Shown piece by piece: positions 2,900-52,300 of a stretch of DNA of 64,000 nt. A program made the position numbers and the translations under genes. A model generated the notes under the pieces. It had not been told where the DNA came from. It searched no databases and saw nothing but the letters and a program-made list of their open reading frames with translations. Position 1 is the stretch's first letter. The number at the start of each line of letters is the position of its first letter. The stretch spans positions 62,001 through 126,000 of the forward strand of contig CAUYUJ010000004.1 in the NCBI GenBank assembly GCA_963575745.1. Reading direction: 5' to 3'. Source of the DNA: Prorocentrum cordatum (Eukaryota).

Positions 2900-5800
2900 G
2901 GCACCTTTCAAAAAGAATGCTCGGGAAGGGTTATTTATGGGTTACCATTTACACTCAGGTGGACGTTGGTCTGGATATTACCTTGTCTTGGATACGGCTA
3001 CATACGCCAAGAACCCAGACGGCGACCTGTGTCACGTACACAGAGTCAAAGATATCATCATCCCCGACGGCAAGTTCACCTCCCTGTGAAAGACGGGACC
3101 CTGCGACATCACAACCCCGAGGCACACGACGAGGTCAAGGCATCTACTTCTCGCCCCTTGGGCGACAAACCCATACCCGACCTTCCACTTGCCTACCCAA
3201 AGGAGTGGGATGATCCATTTATGATGACGATGGACGACAACATCGCTGATACTCACCCATCGGCCTCCGAGGTTGCTGCGCCGGCACCGGAGCCCGACTA
3301 CTGGGAACAGCGTGGATATTGCGTCATCCGACACATCCGTACTCCACGCAGAAAAGTGTTCATATCAACAGACGACGTTATGAACATACCTGTACCTGTT
3401 GATCAGCTCGATTTAACACGAGACTTCGAGACGACTTCTACCTTTGATGGAGAAAGTGTCTTTCGCGATGTTGGAATGGTGTTAGCGCCACAGAGCACCG
3501 AGAACTGAGCGAGCCTTGAACCGGCCTGGTTCGATTCTATGAGCTCCCTAAAATGTTGCCTGACGGCAAAATGGTGGTCCGCGGACGCGAGACCCGCGTG
3601 CAGACTACTACGCGTCCAGACAACATTCTTCCCGAGCATTGGAAGACCTTATCTCGCGGACAGCAAAGGAAGGATATTGAGTACGCCGAAGATATCAAAC
3701 AGGCTCGTGAGACTCGTGAACGAGCTGCACTTCGAGTGTGGACCCGACAGGACAAACAAGCTACAAATTTCCGTGCTACTACAGCTGGTGGACACACATG
3801 GAATACCGTGGAACGACGGATTACTTTCGATACGGACAGCGGCGCTGTCATTCGTGACGAGGACGTCGAGGGCGTGACCAACAAAGAAATTCTGTATGCC
3901 AAACTACCTGGTGGACCACAGCCCTCTGGAGTCGCACGTGCTCTGGTACTTGTTGACAGTGAGGGGAGCGACTTCGGGGCCGTGAACCCGCTCACACGCA
4001 AGTTCACCCCGTCGGTGGCAGTGCCCACCATGCCACGTGGGCCGACATACACACCGGCACACAGAGATAATATTCCTGACTCACCGTGGGCACGCCCAGC
4101 CCTTGTTACCATACATTTGAGTAAGAAAGAAGTTGCCGCATAACCACGTGCACAGGAGGCCCTACGCAAAGAATACGAGCGCCTTGAAAAGAAGCAAACA
4201 TGGATGTTGGAGACTGCTGCTGAAAAAGATGATATTGAGTCGCAGGCGATTCGGACTGGGAAGAAAGTTCACTTCTTCAACATCTTGGAGCTATCTTCAG
4301 TCAAACATGAAGAACTTCCTCCTGAACTACGTAAGTTCAAGGGCCGAGTGGTGGTTCAGGGCAAGACCGGCAAAGATGAAACTGGCTTGGCCGCCATATT
4401 CGCCGATGCCGCATCCAGTGCGTCGCATGTCGAAGCATCCAAACTTTGTGATGCTACCGCATTATTGCCAAAGTATGCGGGCGAGCAGAGCGACGCACCT
4501 GTCGCATACACGCAAGCATTGCTATACGGAGACGGAAGAATCGACCCAGTCGATACGTGGATTACCATGCCCAAGTGGCGACAACCTGCATCTTGGTCTA
4601 AATGCAAGAATCCCGTGCGCCGATTACGATTGGCACTATGCGGGCACCCTCTCGCAGGTGTCTTTTGGGAACGAAAGTGTCGCACGTGTCTGGAAAGTGT
4701 TGGATTTGAGCCCATCCCAGGCTGGGAATGCGTGTGGAGACACAACAAACTGGGATTGATACTTTCAGTATACGTGGACGACTTTAAACTAGCAGGACCA
4801 GCCACCAACCTACAAGCCGGCTGCGATCATATCCGCAAAAGTGTTATTGATTTGGATCCGCCTACCCCATGCTCTCAATACCTTGGCTGTGGACAACAGG
4901 CAGACGATGTACCGCAGAACGTATTCGACAAAAGAATTTCTACCATTCGACCTATGTTGCCTGCCTACAGTGACAAATCATATCATACAGCTAAACAAGT
5001 TCGTGGAATACGACATGACATGCTTGGTTTTACTGATCAATGTATTGAGCGCTACCTGGAGTGCGCCTCCAAGCGTACCCATGGGACAGGGTCACGTCTT
5101 AAACTGTCTGACTCGCCGAGGGCTTCGCGATCCAATTCGCCTAGCTCATCCGGGTCGGTCGTGAGACCCACTAGCGCACTCAACGCGCGGTCACGATCAT
5201 CCAGCCCAGCTGGATCGGTCGACAGACCTTCCACTACGACACAATCCACGACAGTCACATATGATGACCTACCCGACGCGGAGACTCCTGGCATAGAGGG
5301 CACCTCCTTTACCGAGTCCGACTACTCCGACGAGGGTATCCTCGGCCAGGACGCGGCGAGTGTACTGATGAAGATTCTCTATCTGGCACGCTGTTGTCGT
5401 TTCGATCTTTTACATCCAGTATGTATGCTAGCCAGAGAAATTACTAAATGGAATACCACGTGTGATAAACGCCTTCATCGGCTGAGATGCTACATTAAAA
5501 CGACGCGCACCCATTGTTTACATGGGTGGATTGGCGACCCTTCAGACCAGCTATCCATCATGCTTTTCACTGGCGCCTCGTTCGCCGATTGCATTACCTC
5601 CTCCAAATCCACTACCGGTGTCTTCGCGGCGCTTGTTGGACCCAACGCGTTCTTCCCGGTCAACGCCGTGTGCAAGAAACAAACTGTCGTATCGCACTCA
5701 TCCACAGAGTCCGAGATCGTTGCTCTTGACTCGGCGCAACGACTGGAGGGACTACCACTACTCTCATTCTGGGAGGCCGTGGTGGAGGTTGCCAACACAT

Positions 5801-6330
5801 GCAAAGTGAAGACTACTTGCATGGGCTGCCTGGGGCTCGCCGCTGCGGCGACATGCCCGACGCTGGCCGCCAAAAAGAAGAGGTGTGAGCCATCGCCTCG
5901 CAAGGCATCTCCTACACGGGTATCTTCTCCTAGCCGTAGGCAGCTACCGCTGAAGACGGAGCTACCTGTGCCTCCAAAGAGGCGCGCGATATCCCATGAG
6001 GGTGCCGTGCTGCACGTGGAACCAGAGCCCGCTCTGGAGAGCAGCTCTCCGAAAGTGCATCTCATCGTCCTCGAGGATTACGAGGCCGTGATCAAGATTG
6101 TCCAAAAGGGACGTGCGCCCGCACCTCGTCATCTACATCGTACTCATCGTATTAACTTGGATTGGATTTGCGAGACATGCCAATTCGATTTTTTTGAGCT
6201 CAGGCACGCAGGTACAAAAGAACAAATTGCAGATATGATGACAACATTTTGAGCCAAAGAAAGCAGACCTCTGGAGGGATCTATTGGAACACTCGCTCAT
6301 CTTTCCCGTTGCCCCGGTACAGTGCGCTCC
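2900..6330 (+). pseudogene. pol: Copia pol remnant: post-integrase segment, reverse transcriptase, RNase H (frameshifts and stops)
   Basis: GLFMGYHLHSGGRWSG (post-IN); KFKGRVVVQG, DAPVAYTQA, LRLAL(C)GHPLAG and SVYVDDFKLAG (YVDD 4771-4782); RNase H FT(G)ASFA..SKSTTG, KKQTVVSHSSTESEIVA, RHLHRTHRI, QIADMMT. Confidence 0.93.
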
Positions 6331-9300
6331 AAAGGATCCAAGGAGACCACTGCGAGGGCCTCAGAGGCCCGATGGTTTACCTCATGTCGCAGAACCTCCA
6401 AAACGGGATGGATGTCTGGAAATATGTAAGATATCACTTACCGACAAAGAAAAATGGGGCGAGGTAGGATCAGAATGCGGAGTCTTGTGTGTTGGACAAG
6501 CCAATCACGAGGGAGTATGTGCATGCATGTGCTATATCGGTGTTCCTGCTGCGGCTACCGATTCGCGAACACCTCGAGCGAGGGCACGTTCGCCGCACGG
6601 TGGACACCCTCGTCATCCTCCTTCACCACCGCATGGTACAGGGAAGTCTAGAACACTTATTATACGATCGTGCCGCAGCTGTTTTACCACTCGAGCGACG
6701 AAGCTTACCAGCATCTTGCTCGCTGCGCGCGAGACGCAATCAAGTGCGATCGGTTCTAACCCCGATCCCCCCATCTTCGAGATGGACTAGGCATCGCCGC
6801 TCCACCTCAACGGCTGGGCCATCGCCTACGACGCCAGCTACGACGCGAACGCCGAGGCCGACGACCGCGTGGGCTTCACGTGCCACGCTCAGACGGGTCG
6901 TCCTCGCGATCCCGAGGATGGCTTCACCTACGTGCATTATCTGCGCTTTGATCGAAGTGCAGAGTGTGATCTACGAGTGCCCGGCGAATCCACCATTGTC
7001 GAAGTTACCCGCTCCGCGCCCATCGACGCGACGAGTTGCATCGGCAAAGTTGTTGGAGGAGTCGGCGGCGACGCCCACTATGAATACAGTGCGACCACGG
7101 CCACGCCGTGGATGTCATTCATGAAGGCCATGTGCATGATCTCCAGCCTCTTCACGCGTAACTCTTCTGTGCGAGAAAACGTTCGTGGCTTACATGATCA
7201 CTTGCATGCTGTGATTCCAAATTCACACCACAAGTGCCCACCAATGGAGCTCGCGACAGTGGTGTTGAAGGCAGAGTGGATGATGATGCACAACGATTAA
7301 TCAAAAGTGGGCAGTGCATTTCTTGGGCGATATTCTGAGGACAGCGTTCAGGGTACAAACCAGGTGTACAAGGACGGACTTTGTGCGCCTCACGATGTGT
7401 ACAATAATGGTTTGACGACTCCCAACTACGCTCCGAAACTTGATCGCGCTGCGATCAAACTACCCGTGCGTCCACCTGGCATGGCCAGGGCATCGGACAC
7501 TGCGGGCCCCCTCGGCCGCACTGTCGAGGATCACCTCGTCACCGAAGTGAGGGCGTTCTCCGATATCCACCAGACAAGCGAATTCCGCCGCAAGCTCAGC
7601 ACTTGGTTGACCGCGCGCGGAGGATTTGGAGGCATCGGATCAGGCCCCAAGATGGTGGCAACACCATCCGATCACCAAGGCGGCTGGAAAATCCTCCCAG
7701 AGTATGACGAGAATAATTGGCAGCCATACGAGGAGGGATCTGTGCTCGCAGGAGGAACGCCTACCATGGAGGGCCCTGGTCTTACCCCTGATGCTGCCGT
7801 TGACCCGCTCGAGCTGGCACAAGCAAAATACAGCGCGTTTTGTGGTGGTCGATTGGTTTCTATTCTTCTTTCAGACAACGGATAGCCTGGGATCATACAG
7901 GAGGACCTGTGACTTCTCCTTCACCATGCCTTTGACCCGCCAGGGCACGCATACAAATGGACAAATTTGTATACGGATTCCACGTGGATCATGCATCCCA
8001 GGAAAGGGTCCAAGGCCGCCGCGCACAAGAAGTACCCAAGCTACGGCATTGGCGAGCTCAACAGCCCACAGCAGCGAGATGCCCTCGCCAAGGCATCAAA
8101 TGTTGGCCTCGTGCTTCTATTTATGCCGTGCCTCAACCGTGCAGAATGCATCGGCGGCGCCGCCCTCGAGCACTTGTCGACCGTTATCCGCGACGACATT
8201 ATGATGTGGGCATTCTCCTCTGGCAATTACAAAGAACGGTTCAAACAGAACGACGCGGCGATTGGCCAGGACTGCATTCTATTGCCAGAGGCTGGCGGCG
8301 ACACCCGCTGCGATCTGGCACACCTCCGCGAGAGGCCTGCGCAGGCACAGGAGAACCGTATCGCAGCTATCCTTGCATCGCATTTTGAGTCAATACTCGA
8401 ACAGCGCAACATGATCATCATGATCCGCGAGGCCAGAGGCTTATCGCTGATGAGCGACAATGCTTCCATGAAAGAGTGGCGTAAGTTGAATGAGCTCATA
8501 TGGGAATAATGGGCTAACGACTTTCCTGCATACGTGAAACAAAGACACTACTGCAGGGGTATCAACGCCATGGTGGTCTGGAGTGCAAGCGACATTGCGT
8601 GTGCTACTCATGGTCAGACCATGTTGGACGCCCGTCGCCATCAGGACCGCGCCCCTACCCTCGTGCGCGAGCTCATGAAGATGGACTGCGAGGGCGGCGT
8701 CCCGACGCTTATGCCAGTACATGTGAAAGTGGACTTATCACGTTTCATTTTCGTGATGCAGTACTTTCGTTGCCCCACCGTCATGGGGCCAGGCAAAGCG
8801 GCACAATGGGACGTACACCCAAACTTCGACTACCGCACGGGCGACCTGATCAGGACGATGCAAATGCGTTGTATTACAGTTCTTCCCTCAGGCCACTGGA
8901 TTGATGCATGCGACAGAATCACGCCTGAGGCTTGGCATTCAAAACAGAATAATCACAATCTGGCGACGATCGCGACTCAGTTTTGTGATGCAGTATGTTA
9001 CCGCAACTTCTGTGCATTGATCCAGTCATTATCATCACAGCCTTATCCATGCAGACCTCCTATCCTGACTCCAGTCACGGACGCGCAGGCCTACACCCAG
9101 GCCGCAGAGATTATGGAGGCTCTTCAATTTCGTGAAAAGATGACCAACGAATGGAAGAGGAACCACAGCCTCACGACGCTGATGACTCAGACTGCAGGAG
9201 AGATGGCCCATTGTGCCTGGATGGCATCTTGCGCCAGCGGTACTTTGCCGGAATCGATGCCGTTGGCAACAAGCGATCCATGCATGCCCATCCCTGGACT

Positions 9301-12300
9301 CGCAAAAGAGCCACCAGCGCCGGATCCGACAAGAGCTATTCCTGCTAGCGATCCATACGGTGATGCATACGACGAGTTGTTCAACCATCTTCTCCTTCTG
9401 ATCAACGAGTACCCTGGGGCGTTGGCATCTTGGGAATCAGATGAGTACAAGGAGCTCTTTCACCCCAAAATCGTGAAATACACTAAGGATGCACACGCTG
9501 TTACTTGGGTCGTGTACGAGCAGTTCCTGCGCCAGATTAACGACCTGGACGGCGATGACGACTCGACAAAATCACGCATCATTGCAGAGCGCAACAGATT
9601 GTGCCCCCATCGTGTCGGTCCTCGTACTGACAACCAAGATACTATTACAGCATGCAAAGGTTTCTATACACAGAACGCCTTGGATCGTATTGCATTGGGA
9701 CTCACGGCCGACGCTCCAACTACTGCCTTCGGCGCGTCGCCTCCAGACGGCTCCGCGGCCGCTGGGGCAGACCAGCAGGCCGAGGACAGGCAGCCGCTAC
9801 CGCCAGGCCCACTGCCTGATCCACTGCCGCCAGGCCCGCAGCCGATTCCTCTACCAGAGCCATTGCCGCCTGGCCCGCTTCCGATTAGCACGCCCGCTGA
9901 TCCATTGCCACCAGACCCGCTACCGACAGCCGCGTCAGTCCCGGTCCCCGATGACGACGCTGATGTGGAGGCGGCGGAGCTGGAGGCAGCTCCTGCTGAC
10001 GACGGACCTTCTCCTGGTCAGCAATCGGATACGGTATGCATACTGTCGTGGCAAGACTGTTGCGAGCGTTCCTTCCATGAAGACACCAGCCAGATCCCGA
10101 CATTCGACAATGCGTGCACCCCTCGTGAGTACAAGCTTCAAGCAGGTCACGCGGATGATCATCCATACGTACCTCCTCCGTTGCGGGGCACGTCCGCGAT
10201 CAATGGCATGGCTTGCTTGCAGGACGATGATTGGACGAGCCAATTGTCATGCGACGATTGTGTGATCGCCCATGCGCCTGACACTGTTCAGTCTGGTTGT
10301 TTCCCAGAGTGGAAATGGATATCACTCCCGCCGTACGACGAGGCACGCTACGGACCCGAGCTGCTCGATGAGTGGCTTGGAGATCCTGTTTGGATGAGCA
10401 AAGACATCACGACCGTGCTACGTCGCGAGATCCACTACAAAAAGTTCCATATTGACCAATTCAATGATCGACGTGTCAACATATGGCCGAACTCGGCACA
10501 GCATTCTTGGAAGATTCCCAGCAATTGGCAATCATTCCAGGACATGGTTCAGTGGAAATTTCAAGAGCGTCGTGGACCCCACAACGGACAATCCACCGAA
10601 GCGGCCATGGCACACTTTAAGTACTGTGAATCAGACGGATACATGTGCTGGACTGATTACTACCCGATCTTCGTCATTCGTGCGTTCCAGAAGCACATTG
10701 GCCCGTAGCAGAACCGGATCGAGATATATGCCAAACCAGTTTCCGACGGGAGCGATCCCAGTTGCGTCGATTGGAACAGCGTTATCGTTATCAGATGCGT
10801 TGGAGGCCACAGTTGCGTCAGTCCGACTCCACCACGGCGCGACACTTCGTGCCTGGCGAAGCATCCTCAAGTCAGGGATTATTCCAGGCTATGTTGATCC
10901 GTCTTCCCAGAGAGACAAACATTTTCGAGGATCACCACGCGCGGAGGCATTCTTCAGTTCCAGTACCTACGTGCAAAACGTCAAAATGAATCCTCTCACC
11001 TCGGTACAATCGTACAAGTTCAAGCACTACAAGAACGAGGTGGAGCTGGTAATCGACATGCATATTGCCACAAAGGCTGGATGCAGATTTTGGCTGGGAG
11101 CACAGGGCGCTATCATGACTGAGGATGGGGTTCCAGCCGCTGCAGTACTCGCCATTCGCCGTCTCACACCACGCAGCGAGAATGGCAGGCAGATATGGCC
11201 AGAAGGCACTACGTGGGTTTACCCGCCACTGGCTGCGAGACAACCATTGAGCAAATACGAGATTTGCGCTGCTCCTCCTGCGACAGATACAATCGATGAT
11301 CCTCCTGGGATTGCCCCAACTGGCAGGGCCTACGACACGGCTCAGCAGCCACAGACACAGCCCGCCTCAGCATCATCGGCCCAGCGGCCAATCGCCCCTC
11401 AGCTGGGGGCGACCCCTGCTGGCCACACAGCTGACGCTGACGCTTTGGATGAGGCCATGGTCTGTGCGATGGTTAACAGTTGCGGGCACAACACACAGGA
11501 TAAAGAACGGTTGATAGCTATCTCACATTGTAGAGAGGCCCTGCGACCCAATACATCAGAGATTACACAGAAAGATTGGGATCGCCGGCCTATCTTCAAC
11601 GATGTCCGCATGGGGGACTTCATTATCGTTAAAAATTGGGGCTCAACCAATTGCTACCACTATGACAACCACTTCCCCAAGGGCGACTACAACACAAAGG
11701 TGCGTATGACCGAGGGTCATATTTATGGACCAGTCAGTCATTTCGGAGTATTCGAGAAGTTCTTTGCGGTACAAATACCTATTCTCAACTACGGTTTACG
11801 ATGGGTAAGCATATGGTATTGCGACAGAAATATGCCCCTCAAGGGCGTTGTCTTCGCTATGCCAGTACGTACCGGCATCAACCCGATTCACATGAATGTT
11901 GCACTTCAGGGTTCATCTTCGTGCAGCGATCAGATCTATAAATTAAAAAAATCTGGTGATCTACCATATCTTCGCATGCCGAGCATTGACAAACCACGTA
12001 TCCCACGCACGCCGACCAGACGCCCCGCTCCTCGGACACCCGATCCCGACGAGCCGGTGGCCACACCTGCCGAGGATCCCACGGCAGACGACGAGGGATC
12101 CCTACACGACGCAGGCCAATCCAACGACCCTCTGGTAACTGTCATTGTGGATATATCGACCATACCACTCACAGATGAGGAAAAAGCAGCCAACGATGCC
12201 ATGAAGGCGGATTTATCGGCAGAGGTTCACGCTGATGAGGACATTGGCTCGAGCATCCTTGATAATATCATTGACCCGCCAGAGGATTTCCTCAACTACC

Positions 12301-14504
12301 CCGACTACGAGCCAGAGGATAATACCAGATGGATATTGCAATCTTACGACCACCGCGTATACCGCTGGACGTCGGAGCTATTGGTCGACTCTCCAATGAT
12401 AAAGGTAAAACAAATTATTGAAGTACACACAGGTAGGGCCAACCTGGTGGTGGACAGGAGAGAGTCACACCTACGATTTGAGATGCAATTTTGTCCAAAA
12501 ACAGAGGCATACCAAATGGATTACGATCATACCCACACATGGGCACGCGACTTACCGATTTGCAGTGCATATTGTTTCTTCACAAAGATGGTTCACTACC
12601 TGGACCCAGAGATCATTGAAGAATCTACCACGGGCATCTTTCATTGGATTTCCAAAGTGTACCAAATCATATTGTCGGACAGCATCAAGGAGCTACGTGA
12701 TTTCACCAATGATGCTATCTATCAGAACCATCCTGCCTTCAATGCGTTGCGTGCTCTCTTCGCGCAATGCATCAGGACGCACGGCAACCCAGGCTTCCCC
12801 GTATGGAAGGAGCCGGTGGAAACGCCTGCCGCGCCTGACCAGGACGATCCAGGCGCCAACCAGGATATCCCCAGGGATCCAGGTAGCGTTGCTTCTGCAG
12901 CTCCCGACCAAGAGACCATGGTACAGATCATAGCCAATACAAAGAAGATTGACCGCAAGGGTGGCGATAACGAGGCCATCTTGCAGGCAGAGGCTACCCG
13001 CATCCGTACGGACAACGTACACCATGGTGATACTGATACTGCGGACACCGACACCTCCGGGTACGCAGGACTACCGGGGGAAAGATTGTCTAGGATCGAG
13101 ATCGAGGGGATCGGCCGATCGATCGCCTCCCGTCCGACCGCCGAGATCCATCGTGAGGCAATGAACCAAATCGGCCGTGGTCTTGCTTCCACTGACGGTG
13201 GCACCACCCGCTGGGGATCCTTTGGGCACCTTGCTATCTCTGGCGCCCCTGAAGAGATCCAGCATGATATAGCGCGATGTCGGAATTGCGATCGTTTTCT
13301 GTCTCTGGGAATCGTCACAGGTGACGGTACAATTTGTGATATCTGCTGGCAGTACACTGTCTCTGTAGGTACTACTGGCCAAGGTGGCGCCGTGGAGAGC
13401 GACCTGGCATACCTCCAGCAGTTGAACCACTGGATCAAGACGAACCTCTCCCAGGACGACATCACCAGGTATATGACAGATGGAGCGCGTGTCCACATGA
13501 TGGGCAAGCGCTCCATGGCTGGTCAGGAGAAGGATACCTTGAGGAGATTCACGAAGAAAGCTGCGGAGAGGTATCAGAGGTGGGTTAGCGCAGGCTCCCC
13601 TCCTGCACACATGTGCAGGCTGATGGGCGAGACTGAAGACGACAGACCTCTATACCACCCCTTCGCCAATCTCGTTCAGCGTTTCCTGAATGCCATGCGG
13701 TTCCGCCACCAAATGACAGCCGCTCGCACAGAGACTGGCAAAAAGGCCTTCACCATCGAAGACATGCGAGATGCTTGTGATATTCATGATCACAGCGTCA
13801 GGCTTGGCTTCGCTGGTCGGAGGAATTGGTGGTTGAACACTGGTAGACTCGACAGAGGCACTAGGCAAGAGCGTGGTCTTATCGCAATTGCCCTCCCCCG
13901 TGGGGGCGGCGCTTGCGAGAAAGTCACGCAGCGCAAGCTTGCCGCGCTGGCCTCCATCGAACCTGCCATGGAGCCTGCTAATCAAAGGGGGGCGGGTTCA
14001 GGGATTAGAACCGATCCGATCGACCCCGACGCACACTCCTCACATTCTTTTGGCGCCATGGAGCCGCGGCAGCCGCGGCGCCCGCCGCCGCCGCGCCCTG
14101 CCCGTGGCGATGCTGATGGATCCCGCGCCTCTGGCGCGCAGGATGACATGCCCGCTGGGCCGCGCGGCGCCGCCGCGCAGCGGCAGAGCAGCGATGCCAG
14201 CCGCAGACCAGCAACGTCTCCTCGTGCCAAGCGGGCGCGTAGGACAGAGGACTACGCAATGTGGTGGCGCAAGAACCTGGAGGAGAGCCAGTGGGGCCCC
14301 AGGTACTGGGGCTACTACGCCAAATGCTGGATGTACATCGCGGACAACAACGACGAGTTCGTGCACGTCCGCGACTTGCTGCGCAACGATAGGTTCCCCA
14401 ACTGGACCCCCAGGACACCCTGGGAGACATTCGCGACGAGCTATGTCGCGGATGATGGCCACCGGGCGTGGGACCAGAGGTTCTACGCGAGAGGCGACGC
14501 GTAG
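6284..14504 (+). pseudogene. ~2,700-codon extension downstream of copia RNase H, broken by a few stops and one frameshift near 10705
   Basis: ORFs 6284-6790, 6869-7300, 7307-7885, 7967-8509 and 8534-10708 share one frame separated by isolated stops; 10452-14504 continues in another frame. The first frame carries a plausible RNase H tail (KADLWRDLLEHSLI). Protein-like composition, with Pro-rich repeats (~9794-9930) and a CxxC..CxxC motif (~13278-13347). Confidence 0.75.
10394..11162 (+). pseudogene. Tpt1/KptA-like RNA 2'-phosphotransferase (ADP-ribosyltransferase fold) domain inside the copia extension
   Basis: N-lobe MSKDITTVLRR (cf. SKxLSxxLRH) and VIRAFQKH (cf. IRANQGH); C-lobe LHHGATLRAWRSILKSGIIPG (cf. 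HGTxxxxWxxIxxxGL), RAEAFFS and EVELVIDMHIATKAGCRFWLGAQGAIMTEDGVP (cf. IxIDxxxAxxxGxxFxxSxNGVxLT). Order matches the family; split by the frameshift near 10705. Confidence 0.75.
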
Positions 14505-15275
14505 TTTAGTCGGCCGCGAGGCCCGCCGCTCGATTGGCTGAACTTCATCTTTATACAAGTTCGCCTCGAGCAGTGATTAACAATGTAATTTTAGGCCACT
14601 TCACTATCCAAGAAAAGTGGCCACACTCACTGTGACACCCGAGGCAGACTCCTAAGGAGCACCGCCGGGGGGAGTAACCAATTGCAGAATTTATGTTTGC
14701 AGCTTTTCGTGCTTGTCAACACGACTTTACGCATGGCCATGTATTTACTTTGACATTTATACGTGTTCCTTAACGCGATCGCGTTCCTCAACACGACTTC
14801 ATAATACGCATTCTTGTTGCTTCTTTTTTACAGTATATTTACATTGCGTTGAGAATGTTCTGATGCCCAGCTCTAGTTTGAGAGCTGGTGGCAACACCTA
14901 CCGCGCTCAGGCGCGGCAGCTTCTGATGTTGCTTTAATTGATCAGATCCCCTTGCTCCGCCCACCCGTGTCTCATTCTTCTCCGCCCTCGAGTGCCGAAG
15001 CGTTTTTTGGGGGCGCACCGAGGGGGCACCAAAGTGTGCTTGGCGAAGAAACAGGGACCCTGGGTGTTCCTTCTTGCCCTTACTTGCCTAATCGTGACAG
15101 CCTTGTGCTACGTTTCCTTTTGAACACCGCTGTCATGATTAGGACGCAGCTGATGCTATGTAGATTTCACGCTCAGCTGCCTCGCAATGCTGAGGATTTG
15201 AGGAGTAAAAGGGTGACATGTTCTTTTCTCCTGTTCCCGAGCCCTGCCCTCACGGGCGGGATTCGGGACGGGGGG

Positions 15276-21599: not shown

Positions 21600-21626
21600 T
21601 CTACCCCCATCTCATCAGGCCGCCTC

Positions 21627-24128: not shown

Positions 24129-24131
24129 CGA

Positions 24132-24296: not shown

Positions 24297-24298
24297 GT

Positions 24299-37389: not shown

Positions 37390-37395
37390 GACAGG

Positions 37396-38645: not shown

Positions 38646-40899
38646 AAGCGCTCGCGTGTGTGCAGTCACAGCGGCCCCGGGCTGCGGGTGGGGGTGTGAG
38701 GGAGACAGGATAGCAGGTGTTCTGTTCGGGGGCATCTTCAGTGGATCTTGTGCTTGTAGAGCTCACATCGTGGAGAGTCCACAACACAACGGCGTTAAAA
38801 CTTTTAAAATTACTTTTGCATGCGGACCTGCAGCTGCATTGCAGGGGTCCGATGGCATTTTGGCTCTATGATCTTGGTAGGCGTGTGTTCTCACGCTTGT
38901 AAGCAGGGGGTCTGTTGCACCTGTCATCTTGAGGCCGCCCACCTGTCTTTTGGAATACGCAATGGCAACTTCGCGATGGAGGCATTGACGCCGCCGTCGG
39001 ACGAGATTGACGCCTTGGAGTTCGTCAAGGTGAAGCAGGATAGCTGGGCAAAGGTCGCAACGAGACTTCGCCGACATGCAGCTCCTTGCGGCCGTGGACG
39101 TTGGCGACTACCTCGAGGCGGTGTCGTCGGCAACTGCAGGCGGTGGCGGCCTGGTGCGGACGAGGCTGGTGCTTCTCTTTCACGTGGCCCGGCGATCGGC
39201 GGGACTGCCGCTGATCAGTGGGTCCGAGGCTGCGTCGCGTGCGCCCAGGGGCGGCGGCGCAAGCGCGCCCGCGCCGCCCTGCCCTGCGCAGGCGCCAGTG
39301 ATCGCAACGGTCGCCTCCTGGAGTGGAGCAGTCGAGTCTGCGACGGGGTCCATCCTCCGTGTGAGAGACTTCTTCGATCAAGAGTCCCGGCTCACGGTGG
39401 CACCCTTGGACGAGCCTGCCCTCGAGCAGATGCGGGGGGCGCAGGCTGGCCGTCAGCTCGCCGCCGCTGCCCCGCGAGCTGGCGCCGAGTGACAACCAGC
39501 TGGCAATGATCAAGCGGATCGCGGGCGCAGGGCTCAACCCTTTGGCGTTCGACGTGGCGATATGGGGGCCGAGCGGCGGCCGCCGTGAGCGGCGCCTCAT
39601 GTTGGCGATGCACCACACGTGCGCTTTAGGGACGTACGTCCCGCGCAAGGTGCCGGGGCCGTCTTGTCTGGATGACAGGATTGCAGCGTGGGCGTTCGCC
39701 GTGCCCACGTTGGTGATGGCCGACGGGGTGGAGCGCGGCGTGGCGGACGCATACGCCAGGAACTTCAAGCGGCTCGCCGAGCTCCACCTTCCGGCGTGGT
39801 GGGTGGCCGCGGTGGCCGAGTGGGGGTTCCGCTTCGAGTCTGTGCCAGACGAGTTCAGGAGGCAGCGGGCCTTCCACAGGAGCTCTCCAGGGCTGAGCGC
39901 GTTCGAGCCTGAGCGCCCGTACAACTCGATTTCGTTGGCCGCCGTCGAGGGTTTCGAGGGCATGGCCTTCTGGGACCAGCACCACTCAGCACCACCCATG
40001 AGTTGGGAAACCGCGGGGCAAGCAGCGTGGACGCCGTCGTGCACGCGTCGGCAGGAGATCTTCTACACCCCGGCACAGCCCGCCTTGCCAGCGCAGTGGG
40101 GTCAGCGGCGACGCCGCCCAGGGCCAGGGGCGCGGCGCAAGCCAGGCAGGGTGGCGCCAAGAAGATGCAGGAGAGCACCGAGTGGAGCAATTGGGTCAAC
40201 CAGAGGCGCGATGACGGCCGGCTCCTCCGCGCAGAGAATGGCCAGGACATTTGTTTCGAATGCAGCCGCAATGAGGGCGGGTGCGCAACCCCATGTGCCG
40301 GCCATCCGCCCAGGGTCCATTGCTGCGAGTGGTGCCGCCAGCCACGCCGCAGCGTCGGGTGCCCGACCCATCCGGGGTGGAAGCCGAATTCTACAGGCAA
40401 GGGCGGCGGCGAGAGAAAGGGGGGCAAGGCAAAGAGCGCGCGCATGTGAGGCCAGGCCGCGGCCAGCGCTGGCGAGGGTTGTGGGGCAAGTCAAGGGGCG
40501 GAGGCAGCAAGCCATGTTGGCAGAAACCTGGCTCCTGAATGCTCTGCAGTGTGTCGGGGGGGCCCCGCACCTCGTCTCAACGATTGCTTTTGCTCGTCTG
40601 CCGCGGCGGCCCCGCCTGGGTTTGATGGACGGCTCGCGCTGGGGGCGGCTGCTGCTGCGGCTCTGGCGGTTGTTGCTAGCGCTCTTCCGGATCGCGCCCG
40701 GCCGCTTAAGCCTGGCCGCCGCATTGGGGGTCCGCGGCGGGGAGGCGCGGCGCCCGTGGCCGGGCTGCTCGCCGCGCCCAGGGCCCGCCGCAAGCCGCGG
40801 GGCGAGCGGTTGGCTTCGCGGCGCCCGCCAGGGCCTCCCCGGCGCCTGGCCGACGGGCGGGCGCTGCAGCAGCCCCTCGGCCAGCGCTTCGCCGAGGCG

Positions 40900-41540
40900 G
40901 CTATCGGCGCCGCCAGGTGTTCCCTCGGCAGTCCCGAAGGTTGGCGCGGAAGTGGGCGCTCTCACAGTGAAGGGGGCCCGATCGCGCGCTGGCCTCGGGG
41001 TCTGACGCGTTGGCCTCGTCGGGCCTCCGCGACCTCTCGCGGCGGATCCACCGCCGCAAGCGTCGGTGGATCAATTTCGCACTGCCGCGTCGCGCCTTCT
41101 TTCTCGCGGGCTCGGTGGCGTAGCCTGCGCGCCCGAGCGGATGCGCCGACCCCGGTGCGTCACCGAAGACAACGCCTTGGCAGTCCGCGCAGTGCGTCTG
41201 GCGAAGGCGCAAGTCCGGGCAGGTGGATTATTTTCTTCGAGGGCCCAGAGAGGTCGCAAATGCGCGAGTTCGCGGAGTGCCCGTCGCTCGCGCAGTTGCC
41301 GGGCGCGCTCGCCGTCATCGGGGGCCAGTGCTGCTTCGGGGGCCAGTGTAGGAAGGAGGCGAAGTGGGTGGCGAACGCCCTGCGGCGTAGGCAGCTCGGC
41401 GCGCGATGCCTGGGGCCGCCCGCGCGTCCGCCCCGCCCCCTTCGGAAGGGGCTCGCGGCGAGGGCGGGCGGATCGCCGCGCTGCAGGATCGAGCTGGCAG
41501 CGGAGTGCCCGCGGGGCTTGTGCGAGGCAGTGGCCGGGCC
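40900..41540 (+). pseudogene. Degenerate C5 DNA methyltransferase-like domain of the second DIRS
   Basis: FFEGPERS (ENP-like), GQCCFGGQCRKEAKWVAN (DQCxFG..RKxT-like) and LAAECPRGLCEAVA, paralleling the motifs at 28400-29030. Confidence 0.5.
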
Positions 41541-42133
41541 AGGGCGTGCGCGGCAGATCGCTCGTCGCCGCCGTCGGTCACGACGGTTATCTTCGACGAG
41601 CGCGGCGCCCGCGACCCGATGCTGGCGCCCAGTCGGAGGGCCGAGCGGGGGGCTGCCATTGAGATGGCGCTGGGCGGATTGCGAGTCCCACGCTTGTCGG
41701 TGGCCCGCGCCCGAGGCTGGCGTCGGAAAGGGGCATGGGCGGCCTTGGCGCCCATCGTCGCTGACAGAGATGTGGCAGCGCTGCAGGAGGCCGGCGCAGT
41801 CGTGGATTTCCTGGGGACTGAGTAGAACGCGGGCTTCCCGGCGGCGGCGGCGGAGCGCGACCGCGGGGCTTTGGCGCTCCTGCGGGCGAACCGCCGCGCC
41901 GATCACCGACGCCCCGTCGGACCTGCAGGCGCGCCCCCTGGCGGCCGCGCTGACGGCGGCGGGCGATCCAGACGTCTTGCTCGGGCAGTGGGCCGCCGGC
42001 GCAACGCCCGTGGGAATCGGCCGGGACATCCCCGCCCGTGGTGCATTCTTGGCCATGGGCGAGCCGTGCAAGTGCACGGGGGTGGCTCGGGCCGAGTCGG
42101 CGCCGCGGCCTGCTGCGCGGGGGTCCACAATTG

Positions 42134-43070
42134 TTTACGCGTCGCGAATCCCCGCCAGCCCATTCAGGAACCCTGCCTTCGAGAGCTGACGGGACATGGA
42201 GAGAAGAGACGCACATAGTGAAACAGAGCGCGCAAGGATAGGAGAGGGGGGAGGGCGTTGAGCCATCTTGGAGGCCATCGTGGAGCATCGGAGGCCTTTT
42301 TGGACCTACGGGGCTGCATCGGGGATATCGGGGCCCCCCTGGAGTTCTTGCAGGGCTTCTTGGGGCCTTCTTGGGGCTCTCCTGGGGGTCTCAGGATTAA
42401 ATTGGGGTTGTGGTTATTTTGGGGCGTCTTGGGGCTACCGTGGGGCCCTTCTGGGGCTCTCTCGGGCCCTCTCGGGGCCATCGCGGGGGCTGCGGGGCGC
42501 CTCCTGGGGCCATCTTGGAGACCGTCGACCAACGGAGGGGGGGGTCTTCGAATTGCCCCCCCCCCCCCCCCTGGGCCATCGAAACAGCCCCCCCTGGCGC
42601 TCTCTGGGCCCTTCTGGGGGCGATCTGGGGCGCTCCTGGGGCCGTCTTGGGGGCCTTGGGCCCTTCTTGGAGCTCCCTGGGGCTATCTAGAGGCCATCTT
42701 GAGGCTTCGAATCATCAGTGATTTCCCGATGGCATTTTGAAGGATTTTGGCCTCTCGTGGAGGTCCGGAGGGGTCGCCGACAGCACTTGGAACCGTTTTG
42801 TAGCCTTCTTGGGGCCTCTTGGAGGCATGTCGTTAGCTATCTTGAGCCATGTTGGGGTATCTTGAGCGCTCTCGGAGGCTATGCCCTCTTGGAGCCATGC
42901 TGCGCGACAAAAAAAACACCCACTGACACCTCGCGGCCCCCCCCCGCCCAGGTCCAGGGGCGGGTGGGTGGGTGGGGGGGGGGCAAGCCTCTCCCCGAAG
43001 GCGAAGGCGGGTTTTTGGAGGAGGGAGGAACGACGTCGTCAGACAGCTCGTCGCCCAGAGGGCTGGCGGG
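42134..43070. mobile_element. ~0.94-kb non-coding insertion in the DIRS RT with short asymmetric inverted repeats
   Basis: ATTG duplicated at 42130-42133 and 43071-43074; removal restores cac aat tgc gcg tcc tac (HN[Y>C]ASY); aatccccgccagccc (42147-42161) vs gggctggcgggatt (43060-43073); interior rich in cttggggcc. Confidence 0.7.
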
Positions 43071-46000
43071 ATTGCGCGTCCTACGAGGAGTGCGCGGCCG
43101 AGGCCGACGCTGCTTTGAAGCCCGAGCGGGGCGCGGGGCGTTTAATCTGGCGGGGGGCGATCGAGGAAGTGGAAGAGATTTCCAGGAGATGCCGCCTGTC
43201 CAAGGTGGCTGCGCTGGCAAAGCTGAGGACGTCTGGGAAGTTGAAAATCCGGCTCGTCCACGATCTCCGCCGCGCCGGTGTCAATTCCCTGGCGAGAGTC
43301 CCGGAGTGGGTCGTTTTGCCTAGGCTTGACGACGCCGCCCAGCCCCTCAGGATGGCTGGCCGCGTCGCCCGGCGCCGCGGCCGGGTCGCCACCTGAGATT
43401 CGGATTTCGCGGGCGCTTTCAAGCAGCTCCGCGCGCGCCCGGGTTAGAGACGCACCTCTGCGGCGCCGCCCGCGTCGACGGCCAGCGTGACTTCCCCCAG
43501 CGCCTCGCGGTCACGTTCGGGCACGTCGCTGGGCCGTTGGCGCGGGGCAGGGTTGCGGCAGCGCTGATGCAGGCGTCTGCTGCCGCGGTGCCCGCTCCGG
43601 AAGCCCACTTGCAGTGTTGCGTCGACGACCCGTTGGTGGTCCTCGTCGGTGAGCCTGAGGCGCGTTCGCTGGCTGTCTCGACGCCCCCCCTCCCGTGGGG
43701 TGCCCGCGGTTTCCGTGCAGCGCGGGCGAAGGGCAAGCGCGGTTGGTCGGCCGCGTGGCTCGGCGCGGAGATGAGATGCGCCGTCAAGGGGGCCGCGCCC
43801 GCGCCGCCCTCGTCGCCGTCGCGGAGGACCGGGCCGAGAAACTCCTCAGCGGGGCTCGGCGCTTCGTCGAGCTGCCGCTGATCCAGCGCCGCGATCTGCG
43901 GGCGCTCGCGGGGCTTGCCTCTGGGTCTCCTCCGTCGCTCCAGCCTTGCGCGGCTTCGCGCGCATGATCAGGGCCGAAGTGTCGGCTCCGCCAGTGGCCG
44001 GCGAGACGGAGGCCGTCCTTCTTCTGCGCGAAAGGGTCTTTCTGGCTTTGTCTTGGATGCTCCGCCTCTCGAGGCGGTGGATGGGCCGCCTTCCGAGGGC
44101 CTCCTGCGTCGACGATCACCTCGTTGACTTCGTCATCGGCTTCGAAGCGAGAACCACTGGCGTCGGCGCGTGTTTCTCTCGCGACGGTGGCAAGCACTTC
44201 CACGGCTTCTACTGCGCGGTCTGGGGCGCCAGCGACGAGGTCGCCATGGGCGCCCCCAAGGAGGATCTGGGCAGCCAGCCGCTATGGGAGGCCTACGCCC
44301 TCTCGCGGGCCATCACCGCGCGGCCCATTTTCATCGGCGATGCCGATGGCCAGATCGGACTCAGCGGCGACGCATCCGGCGCCCCGCAGAGCGTTGTGCG
44401 CCAGAAGGCGAGTCGCGCTCTTCAATGCCATCGTCATCGAGGCGCAGCTGGAGCTCGGGGCCGGCGCGGGCAACCTGACAGCCGCTCTACTACTGGTCGG
44501 AGGACGACAACGACGTGGCCGACAACCCTCCCAGGGTGGGCGAGGGCGCCGCGATCCCGAGGTCCTTCAGTGCAGCATGCCCTCGCGGCCGGTCCGCCGC
44601 CAGCCTTGGGCCCTCCTCGGGGGCGGTCGCCCCAGGTCGCGCCGGGGGCGTGGTCGCCAGCGTGGTCGCGCTGGCAAGCGGGGGTGGGCCGCGCTGTGAG
44701 CGCCGCTCGAGGTGCAGGCGCGCAGTCTGTGCAGGCTGCTGGCGGGCGGCATGGGCATGCTGCGAGCGGTGCCGGAGCCCGCCTTCGTGTTTGCAGTGGC
44801 GTCTGGGTGGGATCTTACATAAAAGTCGTGGGCGCGGGTAGGGCTCGTCGCCGCTCTGGGCGCGGGCGCGCCCGCCCTGGGGCCCGGCCGTGCTGCGCGC
44901 GCCGGCCGGCTCCTCCTCCCGCCCCCAGCTGGTCGGCAGGGCGCCTCGCGTGTTTCTTGGTGTTGCCGCGTCGGCGCGGCTGTGCCCGCGTGGATCGGCC
45001 GCGCTGCGCGGGCCGGCCTTCTCCCTTTCGCCCCCCCTGCTGGTCGGCGGGGCACCCGCGCCCGTGCGCTTCGAGCATCGGGCGGCGCCCGATCCAGCGG
45101 CTGTGGCTGTTTAGCATGCTTTCTAGGTCTGGCCGTGGCATCTGCAGCCGCCGCGCGGCATCTCGCTTTCAGTCGGGGCCGTGGTCATGTCGACGCATGC
45201 GGGGGGTGGTGGCGAGGGTCGAGCGATGGCGCCGGGCTCCGCGCTGGGGCGGGCTCGCGCCGGGGCTGCCGCGATTCGTCGGGAGCGCGCGCTCGCAGGG
45301 CCGAGCTGGAAGGCGCCGACGAGGGCCCGGCAATCTGCCATCCTGGCGTCGCGTCTCGCTTGTAGGCGCCCGCGCTCGCCAGGAGGCGGCGGGCGTCGGC
45401 GGCGCGCGACGCGCGGGCCTCCCCGCGGCGGGCCGCAGCTCCTCCGCGGGCGGGGGTGGCCCGGCAGAGGGCGAGTCGGGGTCGGAGTCGAGCGGCGGAG
45501 ACGCGCCCAGAATCGTTTCTGCGGCGCCCTCCAAGCCAATCGCGTGCCGGAAGGGTTGCCTTGCGCCCGGCTGGATGCGCCAGAGGGTGGGGGGCGCCCG
45601 CGCTCTTGGAAGGGGGCGGCGAGGAGCGACGGGCGCCCTTGGTGCGACCTGGCTCCAGCGCGGCGGCCGCGCAGGAAGGGCTCGGTCAAGGGGTTGGGCG
45701 CCGTCGCCAACGATGCCGGCGCAGTGGGGGCGCGGGGGCGCGCCGTCTTCGCGAGGCACCAATGGCGCCAATGGCGCCAGTGGCACCAATGGCACCAATG
45801 AGCAGGGGCTCGCGGATGTCCTGACACCACTGGTGCCATGGGCGCTGCGACGCGCGGGGGCTCGCCCCCTTCCCGCTCAGTGCGGAGCTGGTGGAATTCG
45901 TGGGGGCGCTCCTGAGGCGCGGCTGCAATTGGAGTGGGGCTGCCTGCATCTCGGCGGCGAAGCGCCGGCACGTCCAGTTAGGGCGCCCATGGGCGGGCCA

Positions 46001-47584: not shown

Positions 47585-47704
47585 TATATGCATCCATGCG
47601 CACGCACGCACGTACGCACATACGCACACACCTTAATACATGCATACGTACGCGTACATACATACATACATAAATGCATGCGTGCAAACATGCACACATA
47701 AACA

Positions 47705-47735
<31 letters not shown>

Positions 47736-47754
47736 CATACATACATACATACAT

Positions 47755-47797
<43 letters not shown>

Positions 47798-48685
47798 TAC
47801 ATACGTACATACATACAGACATACAACCATACAACCATACATACATACATACATACATACACACATACATACGTACACATATACACCCATACATGCATAC
47901 ATACACGGGTAAGTATGTACGCACGCACGTACTTGCACACATACGTGCGCGTGCGCACGTGCGCACGCACATACGTTCATACGTACATCCATACATACAT
48001 ACACCCGTACGTACAAACATACATACGTGAGTATGCACGTACATACACATATACGTACATACGCATCCACGTACATCCATACGTACGTGCGTACGTACTT
48101 ACGTACAGACATACATACATATACGCACACATCTACATACATGCATACATACATATCTACATGCATTACTCCATTCGCACATGCACATACATGCATACAC
48201 ACATACATAGATACATACGCACAGCCATCTACACACATGTTCGTATGTACGCACATACATCCGGACACATATTCGGATACACATATATACATTCTCACGT
48301 ACATGCACACATACATACATACATACGTATGCACGCACGTACATGCGTATATTAGCATATATCTACATACTTACATACATACATACGTGCATGCATACAT
48401 CCACACACATACATACATACACATACGTGCGCACATGTATTGATATATACATGCATGCATACATACATGCATACACACATGTACACATACACATATTCAT
48501 TATTTCACCCACGTACATACATACATACATACATACATACGCACATACACATACCAATCCCTACATATTGAAATCCATGCAAACATGCATTCATGCATGC
48601 GCCCGTACATGCGCACGTGGATGCATTATATATGAATGCATTCTTATTTATAATGTACACGTACGTGCATACATGTATCTATGCG

Positions 48686-48753
<68 letters not shown>

Positions 48754-49361: not shown

Positions 49362-49382
49362 CCGTTGCCATTTTGGCTCAAG
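49362..49382 (+). other. Genomic copy of the dinoflagellate spliced leader
   Basis: CCGTTGCCATTTTGGCTCAAG is 20/21 identical to CCGTAGCCATTTTGGCTCAAG; followed by AT, so no GT donor. Confidence 0.92.
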
Positions 49383-52300
49383 ATCTGTTTTTCGGGTCCT
49401 CCCATGTGAACGGATGCCGCTAGTCCGCGGCCCGTCCTCGCTGTCTCGCAGCCACGCCACGGGGCGAGCTGTCGTCCGCTCGTGCTCCCATTGCTGGCGT
49501 TGCAGGCTGCCTTCCATATCTTGGTCTCGTCGAGCGCCGCTCCGAGCTTCCACGTCGCCTCGTCGAGCCACGCTCCGAGCTTCCATGCCCTCGTCGAGCC
49601 CGACGCCGAGCCGCCGCCGTCAAGTTCTGGCAGCGCGTTGCGTCAGGTCGCTGGCGCGCAACAGTCCGACTCGAACCGCAACTACGTTTCGCCCCGCCTG
49701 CTCGCCTCGCCACCATGGATCGCGGCGACAGCTCCAGCGGCAACGAGCGTTCGGCATCCCGCAGTCCGCCGTCATAACAAGCCTCTCGCCGCCGCCGCCA
49801 GAAAGCAGGACGTCGAAACCCAGCTGGACATCGCGACCGTTCCCATCGCCAAGCAGATCGCTCCCGCACCGACGCCGCCCGCGGGACATCTGCGCGTGAA
49901 GATATCGTCATGGCTGGCCGCTCTTATGGCCGCGCCGCCCCGCGCCCCTCTCGCGCGGCGCGATCGTCTGCTCGAGCCGCCTCCGCTCTGCTTGTCCATC
50001 GGGCGACGGGTTCCGACGCGATGTGCTCCAAGGGCAAGACCCATGGAAGCTGGCTGCCGACGTGGGAAATTTCCCCACCTCCCCATCGCAAGAGCTTGCG
50101 CAAGGAGCCGCCCGCTCCGCCGCGCATTCCCTCCATGACGAAGTGCGCCCTACTCCCGGCACCCCTGCGGGCGTGCAAGGGGCCGCTGCCCGCGGGGCGG
50201 CCCGCGCCGCGGCCGCCGCCCCACCAGTCCAGCGCAGTAAAGTTCAGCAACCTCTCGCAGGGCTTCTGCCAGAGTTCGACGCCGCGCTGCCGCGGCTCAT
50301 GCAGCAGCAGGCACAGCGCGCCGTCAGCACCTTCCAGGCGCAGGCCAACAACCTGCTCAACGAATTGCGGAACAGCTCCCGTCGGTGTTTCAAACTGATC
50401 GCCGACTGGACGCTCTTCGCGATGTCGTCGCTCGAGTTCGCCGTGGCCGGGGCCGCCAATCTTCGCGGCGGCGGCGTATGTGGGGGCAGATCGACCAGAT
50501 GCGCGACGCCCTTGCCCTCGTCGAGGCGCAGCTCCCGATCGCGGCCCTCGCCTGGCTTGCCGAGCGGGGCAGATACCCCGACCCGACGATCTTCGCCATC
50601 GGCTGCCACCGCTTCCTCCCGCCAGAGATTATCCTCCATGATTTGCAACAGTGGGTCGCCTCGGCCAACCTGTCCCCCGACGCCGTCGAACTCTGCGGAG
50701 ATGAACCCTTGCGCCGATTCGTACTGCAAGTCGAAGGTGATAAGGCCGTTGCTATTCCATGGGCCGTGGCCCTGTCTCGAGCGCTACGTGATGCGGCAGG
50801 TTAAATGAAAGCGATTCGAGTCCACGGGCGCCACTGGCGGCCGCGCCGCCATCTATCCTAACCCCGACAAGTCGCCCAGACAGATCCGCGCAAAAATCCA
50901 GCGCGAGAAACTTCTGCAGTTTCTTCAGCATCAATGCCCAGACCGACGACGGCGTGCCATTCGTGCGAAGGGAGATATCCACAGCAATGCCATGCCCGTC
51001 GCGCGCCTCGGCCTCAGGGGACAAGCCGACTCGGCCATCCTCGAGTGGAACGAGACAACGTTCGAGCTCCAGCAAGTCCAGAGCGCGTCGACCGCGGTGG
51101 CATTCTCGCTTCGTTCCACGCGCTTTTCGCAGACACCGAGTCGGCCGCGCGGCGTTCTTTGCCACCTGCGGGCCCCGTGGGCATCGACAGAGAGAAGCGA
51201 GCCAGTCGCGCTCGTCGCCTCGAACGCCCGCGCCGCCATGTGCCGCGAGCGGAAGCGCCGCAAGAAGCAGCGCATGGTTCTCTCCAAGCTCATGGGGCGC
51301 AGGTGCGTCATCTGGCTGCAGGAAACCCGCGGCGGCGAGGCACTCCTCCGCGCGTGGGTGGGCGCCCAACCGTGCCCGCGCAAGCTCTTTGTTTCGGGGT
51401 TCAAGAACCGCGGTGGCGACGCGTAGAGCGGCGCGGGAGTGTCGCGGCGCCTCTCCCACGGATCTCACGCGCACAGCTCGCGCGGCCCACGCCGCGGCAG
51501 CTCGTGATCTCAGAGCGCGAGGCCGTCGTGGAGGGCCTCGTTTTGACCGTCGCCACCGCCGGCGCCACCTCGCCCATCTCGTCATTATGAACGTGCGCAA
51601 CCGCGACATCAGCGCGGAGGGCCGCGGCGTGGCCCGCCGAGCTTGGCATCTGCGTCGCGCGTGGGCGGGGGCCGACTGCCGCCATCGCGCATTCTTGGCC
51701 ATGGGGCGACTTCAACGGGGCCAGCTGCCCGCCGAACAGCTCCTTCCAGCCGCCGCCGCAGCGCTCGCGCCTGGCGCTCGAGAGCAGCGCCCGCCAGCAG
51801 CAGCCGTCCTGGCAAGAGCTCTTCGACGCGATGCTCGAGATCGAGTCCGACCTCCCCGCCCGCTTCGACAAGTCCGATTGCGCCGCGCCCGCGACGGCGT
51901 TTTCACCAGCTTGCCGTCGCGCGCCGCGCAGGAGGTCACCGCGAATCTCACAATCGCCTTCGACCCTGAGGTTCTCTCCGACGAGCTCCTGAGTGATCGC
52001 GCCATCGTCGCCATCTCCGTTGGCATCGAGCCGACGGCGCCGCTGTTTGAGAAAGCCGTCGCACCCTCCATCTCCCGCGACCCCAGCTACACCGCGTACC
52101 TCCAGCAGCTGATCGACGCTGCCCAGACGAAGCATGTCCCGATAGTCCACTGCTGGCGCGCGCGCAAGCGCCTCTTGGCAGAAGCTGCTCGCCTCGTTCG
52201 CGACGACTGGGTGCGCCAGACCGCCGGCGCAGCGGGGTGCATTGGCTTCGCGGGCGGACGGGTGATCGCGGCTTGCTTGGCATCGCGAGCCATTCGGCGT

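Follow-up and report, generated by a model that had tools for sequence, protein, structure and literature searches.

We analysed a 64,000-nt stretch of the dinoflagellate Prorocentrum cordatum (contig CAUYUJ010000004.1, positions 62,001 to 126,000; hereafter the window) in which a high-copy repeat with a copia-type open reading frame (ORF) is followed by a degenerate copia-type element, paired repeats and decayed microsatellite arrays (Table 1). The first 2.2 kb consist of (CAT)n, a 77-bp satellite and (GGTAT)n. The G+C content is 61% for the whole window, 54-57% in the first 16 kb and 60-70% from 16 to 56 kb. An earlier note on this DNA had read, from eleven codons and a few paired repeats, a process that changes GpT to GpC (ApC to GpC on the other strand) and is possibly tied to modified thymine. 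We found that the changes are probably ordinary neutral decay of repeats under a regime that favors A:T to G:C substitutions, with a mild neighbor effect and no process specific to AC. The dinucleotide odds ratios of the window (AC/GT 0.85, GC 1.07, CG 1.01, TA 0.65) are too generic to decide.

Substitutions in decaying repeat copies

Contigs of the public sequencing runs X1, X2, X4 and X5 were placed on positions 2301-18500 at a likeness of at least 80%, which gave 13500, 1812, 2925 and 8900 contigs, respectively. Hence, by the number of contigs placed, everything from 2841 onward is high-copy repeat; run X1 contains 26% of the sampled words of 4101-14100. The copies vary at 3237 substitution places and 146 indel places, and likeness is under 95% in 9868 of the 13500 X1 contigs. 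For the spectrum we used the best-supported 40 of the 3237 variable places, at most of which every contig differs from the window, and all contig-based substitution counts below refer to these 40 unless totals are named.

From family to window, we found A>G at 18 places, T>C at 7, C>T at 6, G>A at 1 and transversions at 8. Transitions from AT to GC thus stand at 25 relative to 7 in the reverse direction (p = 0.0002 against base composition), and weak-to-strong transversions at 4 relative to 0. In totals, places with G or C in the window and A or T in the reads outnumber the reverse in all four runs (789/688, 713/544, 814/725 and 503/378). Hence, the window copy has moved GC-ward of its family, and the claim that decaying repeats gain G and C holds. 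On either strand, the 25 A>G changes have as 3' neighbor C in 12 cases, T in 7, A in 5 and G in 1. On the plus strand of 2841-16400, the sense of the ORFs, A>G stands at 18 and T>C at 7 (p = 0.07); the X1 totals have no strand asymmetry, as the window has G where the reads have A at 374 places and C where they have T at 415.

The decayed arrays were aligned to the perfect repeat by wrap-around alignment, with about 510 units aligned per position over both (ACAT)n arrays. (ACAT)n is a natural experiment because each unit offers three different A/T sites. We found 77 T[A>G]C, 94 C[A>G]T, 89 A[T>C]A and 48 A[C>T]A changes (41, 32, 44 and 23 in the array at 37640; 36, 62, 45 and 25 in that at 47600). 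The AC site takes 77 of the 260 AT>GC transitions (a third expected) and ranks last of the three A/T classes. Rates of change per unit are 0.15-0.19 at the A/T sites and 0.09 at the C site; the 260 AT>GC transitions, over three site types, compare with 48 C>T over one, and transversions lean GC-ward as well, with 58 A>C or T>G changes at the three A/T site types and 7 C>A at the C site. In the (GGTAT)n array the GpT site is the least changed (G[T>C]A 3/79, T[A>G]T 8/79, A[T>C]G 5/73), and the AC context holds 3 of 16 AT>GC transitions. Arrays of CAT/ATG type carry many AT>GC transitions despite having no AC or GT dinucleotide. The 77-bp satellite gave 18 G>A events and 12 A>G events, of which 3 stand before A, 4 before C, none before G and 5 before T.

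Queried with residues 1 to 1200 of the ORF at 10398-14501, HMMER found 90 short relatives, up to 89% identical. We piled up those of at least 60% identity, which cover 752 residues at least twice, polarized the changes by majority and kept unique single-base paths only. Among changes of single relatives (130 of 204 usable), A>G occurred at 53 of 749 opportunities and G>A at 36 of 704. By 3' neighbor, A>G stood at 9/160 before A, 18/182 before C, 4/173 before G and 22/234 before T; the rates per opportunity are 0.099 for AC, 0.094 for AT and 0.023 for AG, and G>A before A reaches 0.073. Transversions of the relatives have no GC-ward lean (A>C 12, G>T 12), and no excess of CpG transitions was seen among them (G>A after C 9/158, after A 15/151). 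Changes derived in the window itself (26 of 29 usable) comprise 8 A>G (before A 2, C 1, G 2, T 3) and 6 G>A. By strand, the pile-up has A>G 39 and T>C 14, with 62% expected (p = 0.09). With AC tied to AT in this pile-up and lowest among the A/T classes of the arrays, a context-specific GpT>GpC process finds no support.

The copia-type ORF at 4144-6249 departs from its relatives in 29 of 184 conserved columns; 3 of the 29 are A>G before C, and AT>GC relative to GC>AT transitions are 6:5. We pooled 90 A>G changes: 25 from the contigs, 53 and 8 from the pile-up and 4 from the copia columns, with two of the earlier picks excluded. Their 3' neighbors are A 16, C 34, G 7 and T 33, where 19.6, 22.4, 21.3 and 26.6 are expected (chi-square p = 0.0005). 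Counted over these 90 events as T>C by 5' base, the ratio to expectation is about 1.5-fold after G, about 1.2-fold after A, 0.8-fold after T and 0.3-fold after C. Hence A>G before C is indeed over-represented, about 1.5-fold, as the earlier note would have it; the near-exclusive AC pattern is gone, with 34 of 90 unpicked changes in that context. Enrichment of GpT>GpC over other transitions had been set beforehand as the check on the proposed process, and the outcome comes near to refuting it.

A>G before G (that is, T>C after C) is about 3 times rarer than expected, with 7 of the 90 pooled changes relative to 21, and this deficit is stronger than the AC excess. It recurs throughout the data sets, at 1/25, 4/53 and 2/8 in the separate sets and at 0/12 in the satellite, whose A>G neighbor profile agrees in shape with the pooled counts.

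The eleven codons and the elements that hold them

All eleven named AC>GC codons are present in the window as described: CGHP (4639), FTG (5572), LRR (10424), HGA (10839), DA (25914), VGD (32008), AECP (41506), DFAG (43412), CVDD (43618), QETR (51328) and SDR (51998). The ancestral residue assumed for each held in the four that could be checked, and seven have no usable relatives. The C of CGHP is Y in 98% of 50 aligned copia relatives, the G of FTG is D in 100% of 57, the relatives aligned at VGD have 100% D at the YVDD box of the Pfam RVT_2 match, and the A of HGA is T in 4 of 6 relatives. For the ORFs that hold 10424 and 25914, a search among proteins of similar length found no homologue. 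Around 41506, 43412, 43618, 51328 and 51998, no transposon domain was found in Pfam (E up to 5), PDB or Atlas; these five example stretches, called DIRS or LINE, are 66-75% GC. Some of the short strings turn up often in the six-frame translation, SDR 32 times and LRR 186 times; shuffled sequence has 43 and 149, respectively. CVDD occurs 3 times relative to 0.15 in shuffles, and none of the three has flanks like those of a reverse transcriptase (RT).

The codons for D, H and Y are NAY, whose sole A at position 2 always stands before C or T, and a T to A replacement is ACN>GCN by definition. Therefore, eleven of eleven AC>GC says little about context, and a scan of catalytic D, H, Y and T for A>G can find only changes before a pyrimidine. 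We also considered that the genetic code by itself forces AC, which is only partly true: in the ORFs that hold the named codons, 52-90% of NAY codons are NAC. The code explains much of the list, not all of it, and the remainder is the choice of examples. The same motifs hold changes that went unlisted: a G>C change turned W227 into C, the YVDD box has E for its Y, and the DTG at 25914 has A for its G. The list is a product of viewing only catalytic D, H, Y and T while leaving misfitting examples aside. As a caution, motif residues of these four kinds are unusable for mutational context, their neighbors being fixed by the code.

The paired repeats do contain the changes described for them, TAC/TGC twice between the LTR (long terminal repeat)-like direct repeats and AGC/AAC once between the inverted-repeat arms, yet only these 3 of the 12 differences fit: the direct repeats have 8 differences, six of them of other kinds, and the arms, which are 211 nt and not 208, have 4. 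Over seven repeat pairs in the window pooled, the purine stands before C in 20 of 52 transitions relative to 30% expected (p = 0.12).

Table 1. Features of the window, with positions counted from its first nucleotide
Feature	Position	Strand	Remarks
77-bp satellite	548..1822	+	about 15 units
Decayed (GGTAT)n array	1821..2211	+	contains a GpT site
High-copy repeat with copia-type pol ORF and two more long ORFs	2841..15800	+	summed contig depth of hundreds to thousands per bin from 2841
Ty1/copia-type RT and RNase H ORF, 702 aa	4144..6249	+	holds Y166C (4639) and D477G (5572)
Long ORF of the high-copy repeat	8510..10705	+	holds LRR (10424); frame overlaps the next ORF
ORF of a repeated family, 1368 aa	10398..14501	+	holds HGA (10839); 90 short relatives
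211-nt inverted repeat, left arm (208-bp repeat of the earlier note)	21392..21602	.	98% complementary to right arm
Degenerate copia-type element	24128-33598		between 169-nt direct repeats
LTR-like direct repeat, left, 169 nt	24128..24296	+	94.7% identical to right copy
Gag-like ORF with zinc knuckle	25485..28445	+	holds DA (25914); zf-CCHC 22.4 bits (cut-off 20.8)
Copia-type RT fragment	31753..32259	+	VGD for VDD (32008); RVT_2 E 1.7e-10, 41.3 bits (cut-off 31.6)
LTR-like direct repeat, right	33431..33598	+	8 substitutions and 1 gap relative to left
211-nt inverted repeat, right arm	37393..37603	.	4 transitions relative to left arm
Decayed (ACAT)n array 1	37640..38640	+
Stretch called DIRS (AECP, DFAG, CVDD)	40450..43878	+	74-75% GC
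Decayed (ACAT)n array 2	47600..48660	+
Dinoflagellate spliced-leader relic	49362..49382	+	1 mismatch to 21-nt leader motif
Stretch called LINE (QETR, SDR)	50792..52702	+
Second spliced-leader relic	57464-57484		3 mismatches to leader motif

The ORF at 4144-6249 has 95 relatives at 30-63% identity, most with Pfam RVT_2, and 60 of them were aligned; the ORF itself scores 22 bits in Pfam, under the cut-off of 31.6. The RVT_2-type reverse transcriptase that marks Ty1/copia is thus found twice, above the cut-off in the fragment at 31753-32259 and through its relatives in the ORF at 4144-6249. In that fragment the Y of the YVDD box is E. We rejected the fragment for the column test as too distant, because it departs from the copia alignment in 35 of 52 conserved columns. 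The 169-nt direct repeats flank both the zinc-knuckle ORF and the RT fragment, and Pfam found no protease or integrase family between 24128 and 33598. The ORF at 25485-28445 matched no protease family in Pfam and no homologue among proteins of similar length. At 4428-4504, contigs of X1, X4 and X5 skip 75 bases of the copia ORF, so part of the family is without that in-frame piece.

The ORF at 10398-14501 has a weak hint of a Tpt1/KptA-like domain (PF01885, E 0.088, below the cut-off), which lies at 10394-10850 in its own frame; LRR at 10424 is in the frame of the ORF at 8510-10705. If LRR and HGA, strings that we take to be Tpt1 motifs, belong to one domain, then there is a frame change between them in the window copy. 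No homologue of the ORF at 8510-10705 was found among proteins of similar length; the LRH>LRR change in it is putative.

The element names given to two other stretches did not survive. We found neither an RT nor a tyrosine recombinase at about 40.4-43.9 kb, said to be DIRS: Pfam was blank at E up to 5, the PDB matches were all weak, TetR-like and due to chance, Atlas had no usable match, and the flanks of CVDD are not RT-like. Likewise, no apurinic-type endonuclease or RT was found in the supposed LINE at 50.8-52.7 kb, where Pfam, PDB (E up to 10) and Atlas were blank.

Several further repeats were observed. The stretch 16881-18500 has a summed contig depth of about 3000-5400 in X1 and X5, several-fold above the neighboring element, and is a separate, far more abundant repeat; loose contig ends are abundant at 17265, 17666 and 18480. 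A perfect 251-nt inverted repeat (20750-21000 and 21141-21391, 100% complementary, 140-nt spacer) lies directly against the left 211-nt arm; the matching right arm is 15.8 kb off. A foldback element or an artefact of assembly may account for the 251-nt repeat. The two spliced-leader relics were found with what we take to be the 21-nt dinoflagellate leader motif, which had no match in 100 shuffles; they mark the DNA as that of a dinoflagellate, in keeping with what the earlier note assumed. The stretches upstream of them (49201-49382 and 57297-57484) are 74% alike, and the relic stretches are likely retroposed copies. Metagenome contigs, scanned both with protein guides and with DNA patterns, yielded no additional copies. 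No host exon was recognized in the window.

Causes of the GC-ward decay

The reading that we prefer is neutral decay under a GC-ward regime. In this GC-rich dinoflagellate genome, the window would consist of dead and dying repeats (copia-type retroelements, satellite, microsatellite arrays and retroposed copies), and their copies would drift from a family G+C of about 54% toward the local 60-70%. Superimposed on this drift would be a nearest-neighbor effect by which T>C is commoner after a purine (about 1.5-fold for G, about 1.2-fold for A) and about 3 times rarer after C. The GC-ward pressure may be a general compositional force, and biased gene conversion seems a likelier cause of it than mutational bias because the transversions of the arrays are GC-biased too.

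Several points weigh against neutral decay as we propose it. The AC excess is significant in the contig set (12 of 25 relative to 25.6% expected, p = 0.013) and in the pooled counts (38% relative to 25% expected, p = 0.005). In the copia columns, A>G before C occurs at 5 of 45 opportunities relative to 1 of 108 elsewhere (p = 0.01) and makes up 5 of 6 changes where 29% is expected, two of the five being picks of the earlier note. The code alone does not force nine NGC outcomes among the named codons, as NAC is not overwhelming. The GC-ward excess is uneven, at 25:7 in the 40 contig places and 53:36 and 8:6 in the pile-up, and none is seen per site in the satellite, whose 30 A/T sites gave 12 A>G and whose 46 G/C sites gave 18 G>A. 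The gene-conversion step is unsupported by the relatives of the ORF at 10398-14501, given their equal transversion counts. The data sets have bounds of their own as well: the contig spectrum is that of the best-supported 40 of 3237 places, and its polarity assumes that the letter of many contigs is ancestral, which was checked at 4824 only, where the contigs restore a W invariant in 57 of 57 relatives; slippage can multiply variant units, so array counts are not independent events; and the pile-up shows only differences that change an amino acid, which selection may have filtered.

A GpT>GpC process aimed at repeats, by which a modified T after G mispairs with G or is mis-repaired to C, would account for the 38% share of AC among unpicked A>G changes and for 12 of 25 in the contig set. 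It would also suit the location of 5-hydroxymethyluracil (5hmU), reported as enriched on repeats and transposable elements in the cited parts of PMC11572971 and PMC11071213. In Amphidinium carterae, most 5hmU lies on repeats and it contributes to the silencing of transposable elements, according to the part of PMC11572971 cited here, and in Breviolum minutum it is enriched over repeats, with no sequence motif given in the cited part of PMC11071213. That lack of a motif argues against the process, as does the older preference in Crypthecodinium cohnii mentioned in the same part of PMC11572971, which concerns the 3' neighbor (TA and TC) and not a 5' G. Our own counts tell against it more directly: the (ACAT)n arrays have no AC preference (77 relative to 94 and 89), the GpT site of (GGTAT)n changes least, A>G is as frequent before T as before C, and only 1 of the 8 window-derived A>G changes precedes C. 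We consider this process highly unlikely. It is unlikely, too, that the drift is mutational and free of context, with 5hmU or its oxidation products raising T>C and T>G everywhere and gene conversion playing no part. Such a drift would fit the AT>GC excess in three kinds of data (arrays, contigs and pile-up), and polymerases place C and G opposite 5-formyluracil (as stated in the cited part of PMC2673420). It fits neither the satellite, with no per-site excess, nor the relatives of the ORF at 10398-14501, in which A>C equals G>T. That the massive replacement of T by 5hmU, concentrated on repeats, drives the GC-ward decay by mutation, the modified T or its oxidation products being read as C more often and preferentially after a purine, is a quite improbable proposition; were it true, a modification that silences transposons would also erode them and raise genome GC.

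An origin at the RNA level, by which sense-strand A>G from editing or from error of the reverse transcriptase is copied into new insertions, draws on the fact that all eleven picks are sense-strand A>G and on the strand leans of the contig set (18:7) and the pile-up (39:14). The X1 totals lack any such asymmetry (374 relative to 415), and the same AT>GC excess appears in arrays, which are not retroelements, as the satellite is not. ADAR enzymes favor a 3' G, which is the rarest neighbor here, and we hold this origin to be very improbable. It is also extremely unlikely that the private G and C letters of the window are unreal, the long-read assembly having misread a modified T as C. No short-read contig has the window letter at most of the 40 places, as such an artefact would have it; nevertheless, contigs from runs of low coverage should lack variants of a single copy. 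The 3237 variable places on 16.2 kb, with most contigs less than 95% alike, point to real divergence among copies, and substitution places far outnumber the 146 indel places.

If a GpT-specific mutator linked to a modification existed, it would be a new process of genome defense or genome shaping in dinoflagellates, opposite in direction to repeat-induced point mutation (RIP). The evidence favors ordinary decay, so little is at stake. The question that remains is why dead repeats gain G and C in a GC-rich dinoflagellate, by gene conversion or by mutational bias. A phrase search of the literature found no published dinoflagellate substitution spectrum for comparison, and a genome-wide one would be small but new data.

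Comparison with known systems

In fungal RIP and in CpG deamination of methylated repeats, transitions that have a direction and depend on the neighboring base disable repeats, and the earlier note took such processes as its model. Both go from C:G to T:A, mostly in one dinucleotide, whereas the direction here is the opposite and the favored context takes only 38% of A>G. Unlike in RIP, no single context takes the great majority here: AC holds 34 of 90 changes in the pooled counts, 77 of 260 in (ACAT)n and 3 of 16 in (GGTAT)n. CpG deamination differs further, as there is no CpG transition excess here and CpG is undepleted in the window (odds ratio 1.01).

Editing of the ADAR/APOBEC kind shares with the picked examples that all are sense-strand A>G. 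Unlike in such editing, the strand asymmetry falls short of significance when opportunity is taken into account (p = 0.07 and p = 0.09), is absent in totals, and comes with an excess in arrays that are not retroelements; 3' G, which ADAR-like editing would favor along with sense-strand A>G, is found in 7 of 90 changes.

A further comparison is with amelioration, in which the composition of dead repeats moves toward that of the host, as it does under GC-biased gene conversion. Here too, A:T>G:C changes outnumber the reverse and the window is GC-richer than its family in all four runs; the older-looking broken elements lie in 60-70% GC while the element with intact ORFs has 54-57%, and the transversions of the arrays are biased too. 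What differs is that the excess is uneven between data sets, and gene conversion itself would here be a putative cause. For dinoflagellates, the cited part of PMC7299967 raises gene conversion only as a possibility for codon usage.

The remaining likeness is to the ordinary nearest-neighbor effect on T>C. In eukaryotic germline spectra and in those related to mismatch repair, T>C prefers a 5' purine. The same preference is found here, with sizes and ranking that come from 90 events only. The pattern that survives is an already known kind of decay, neighbor-dependent under GC-ward pressure.

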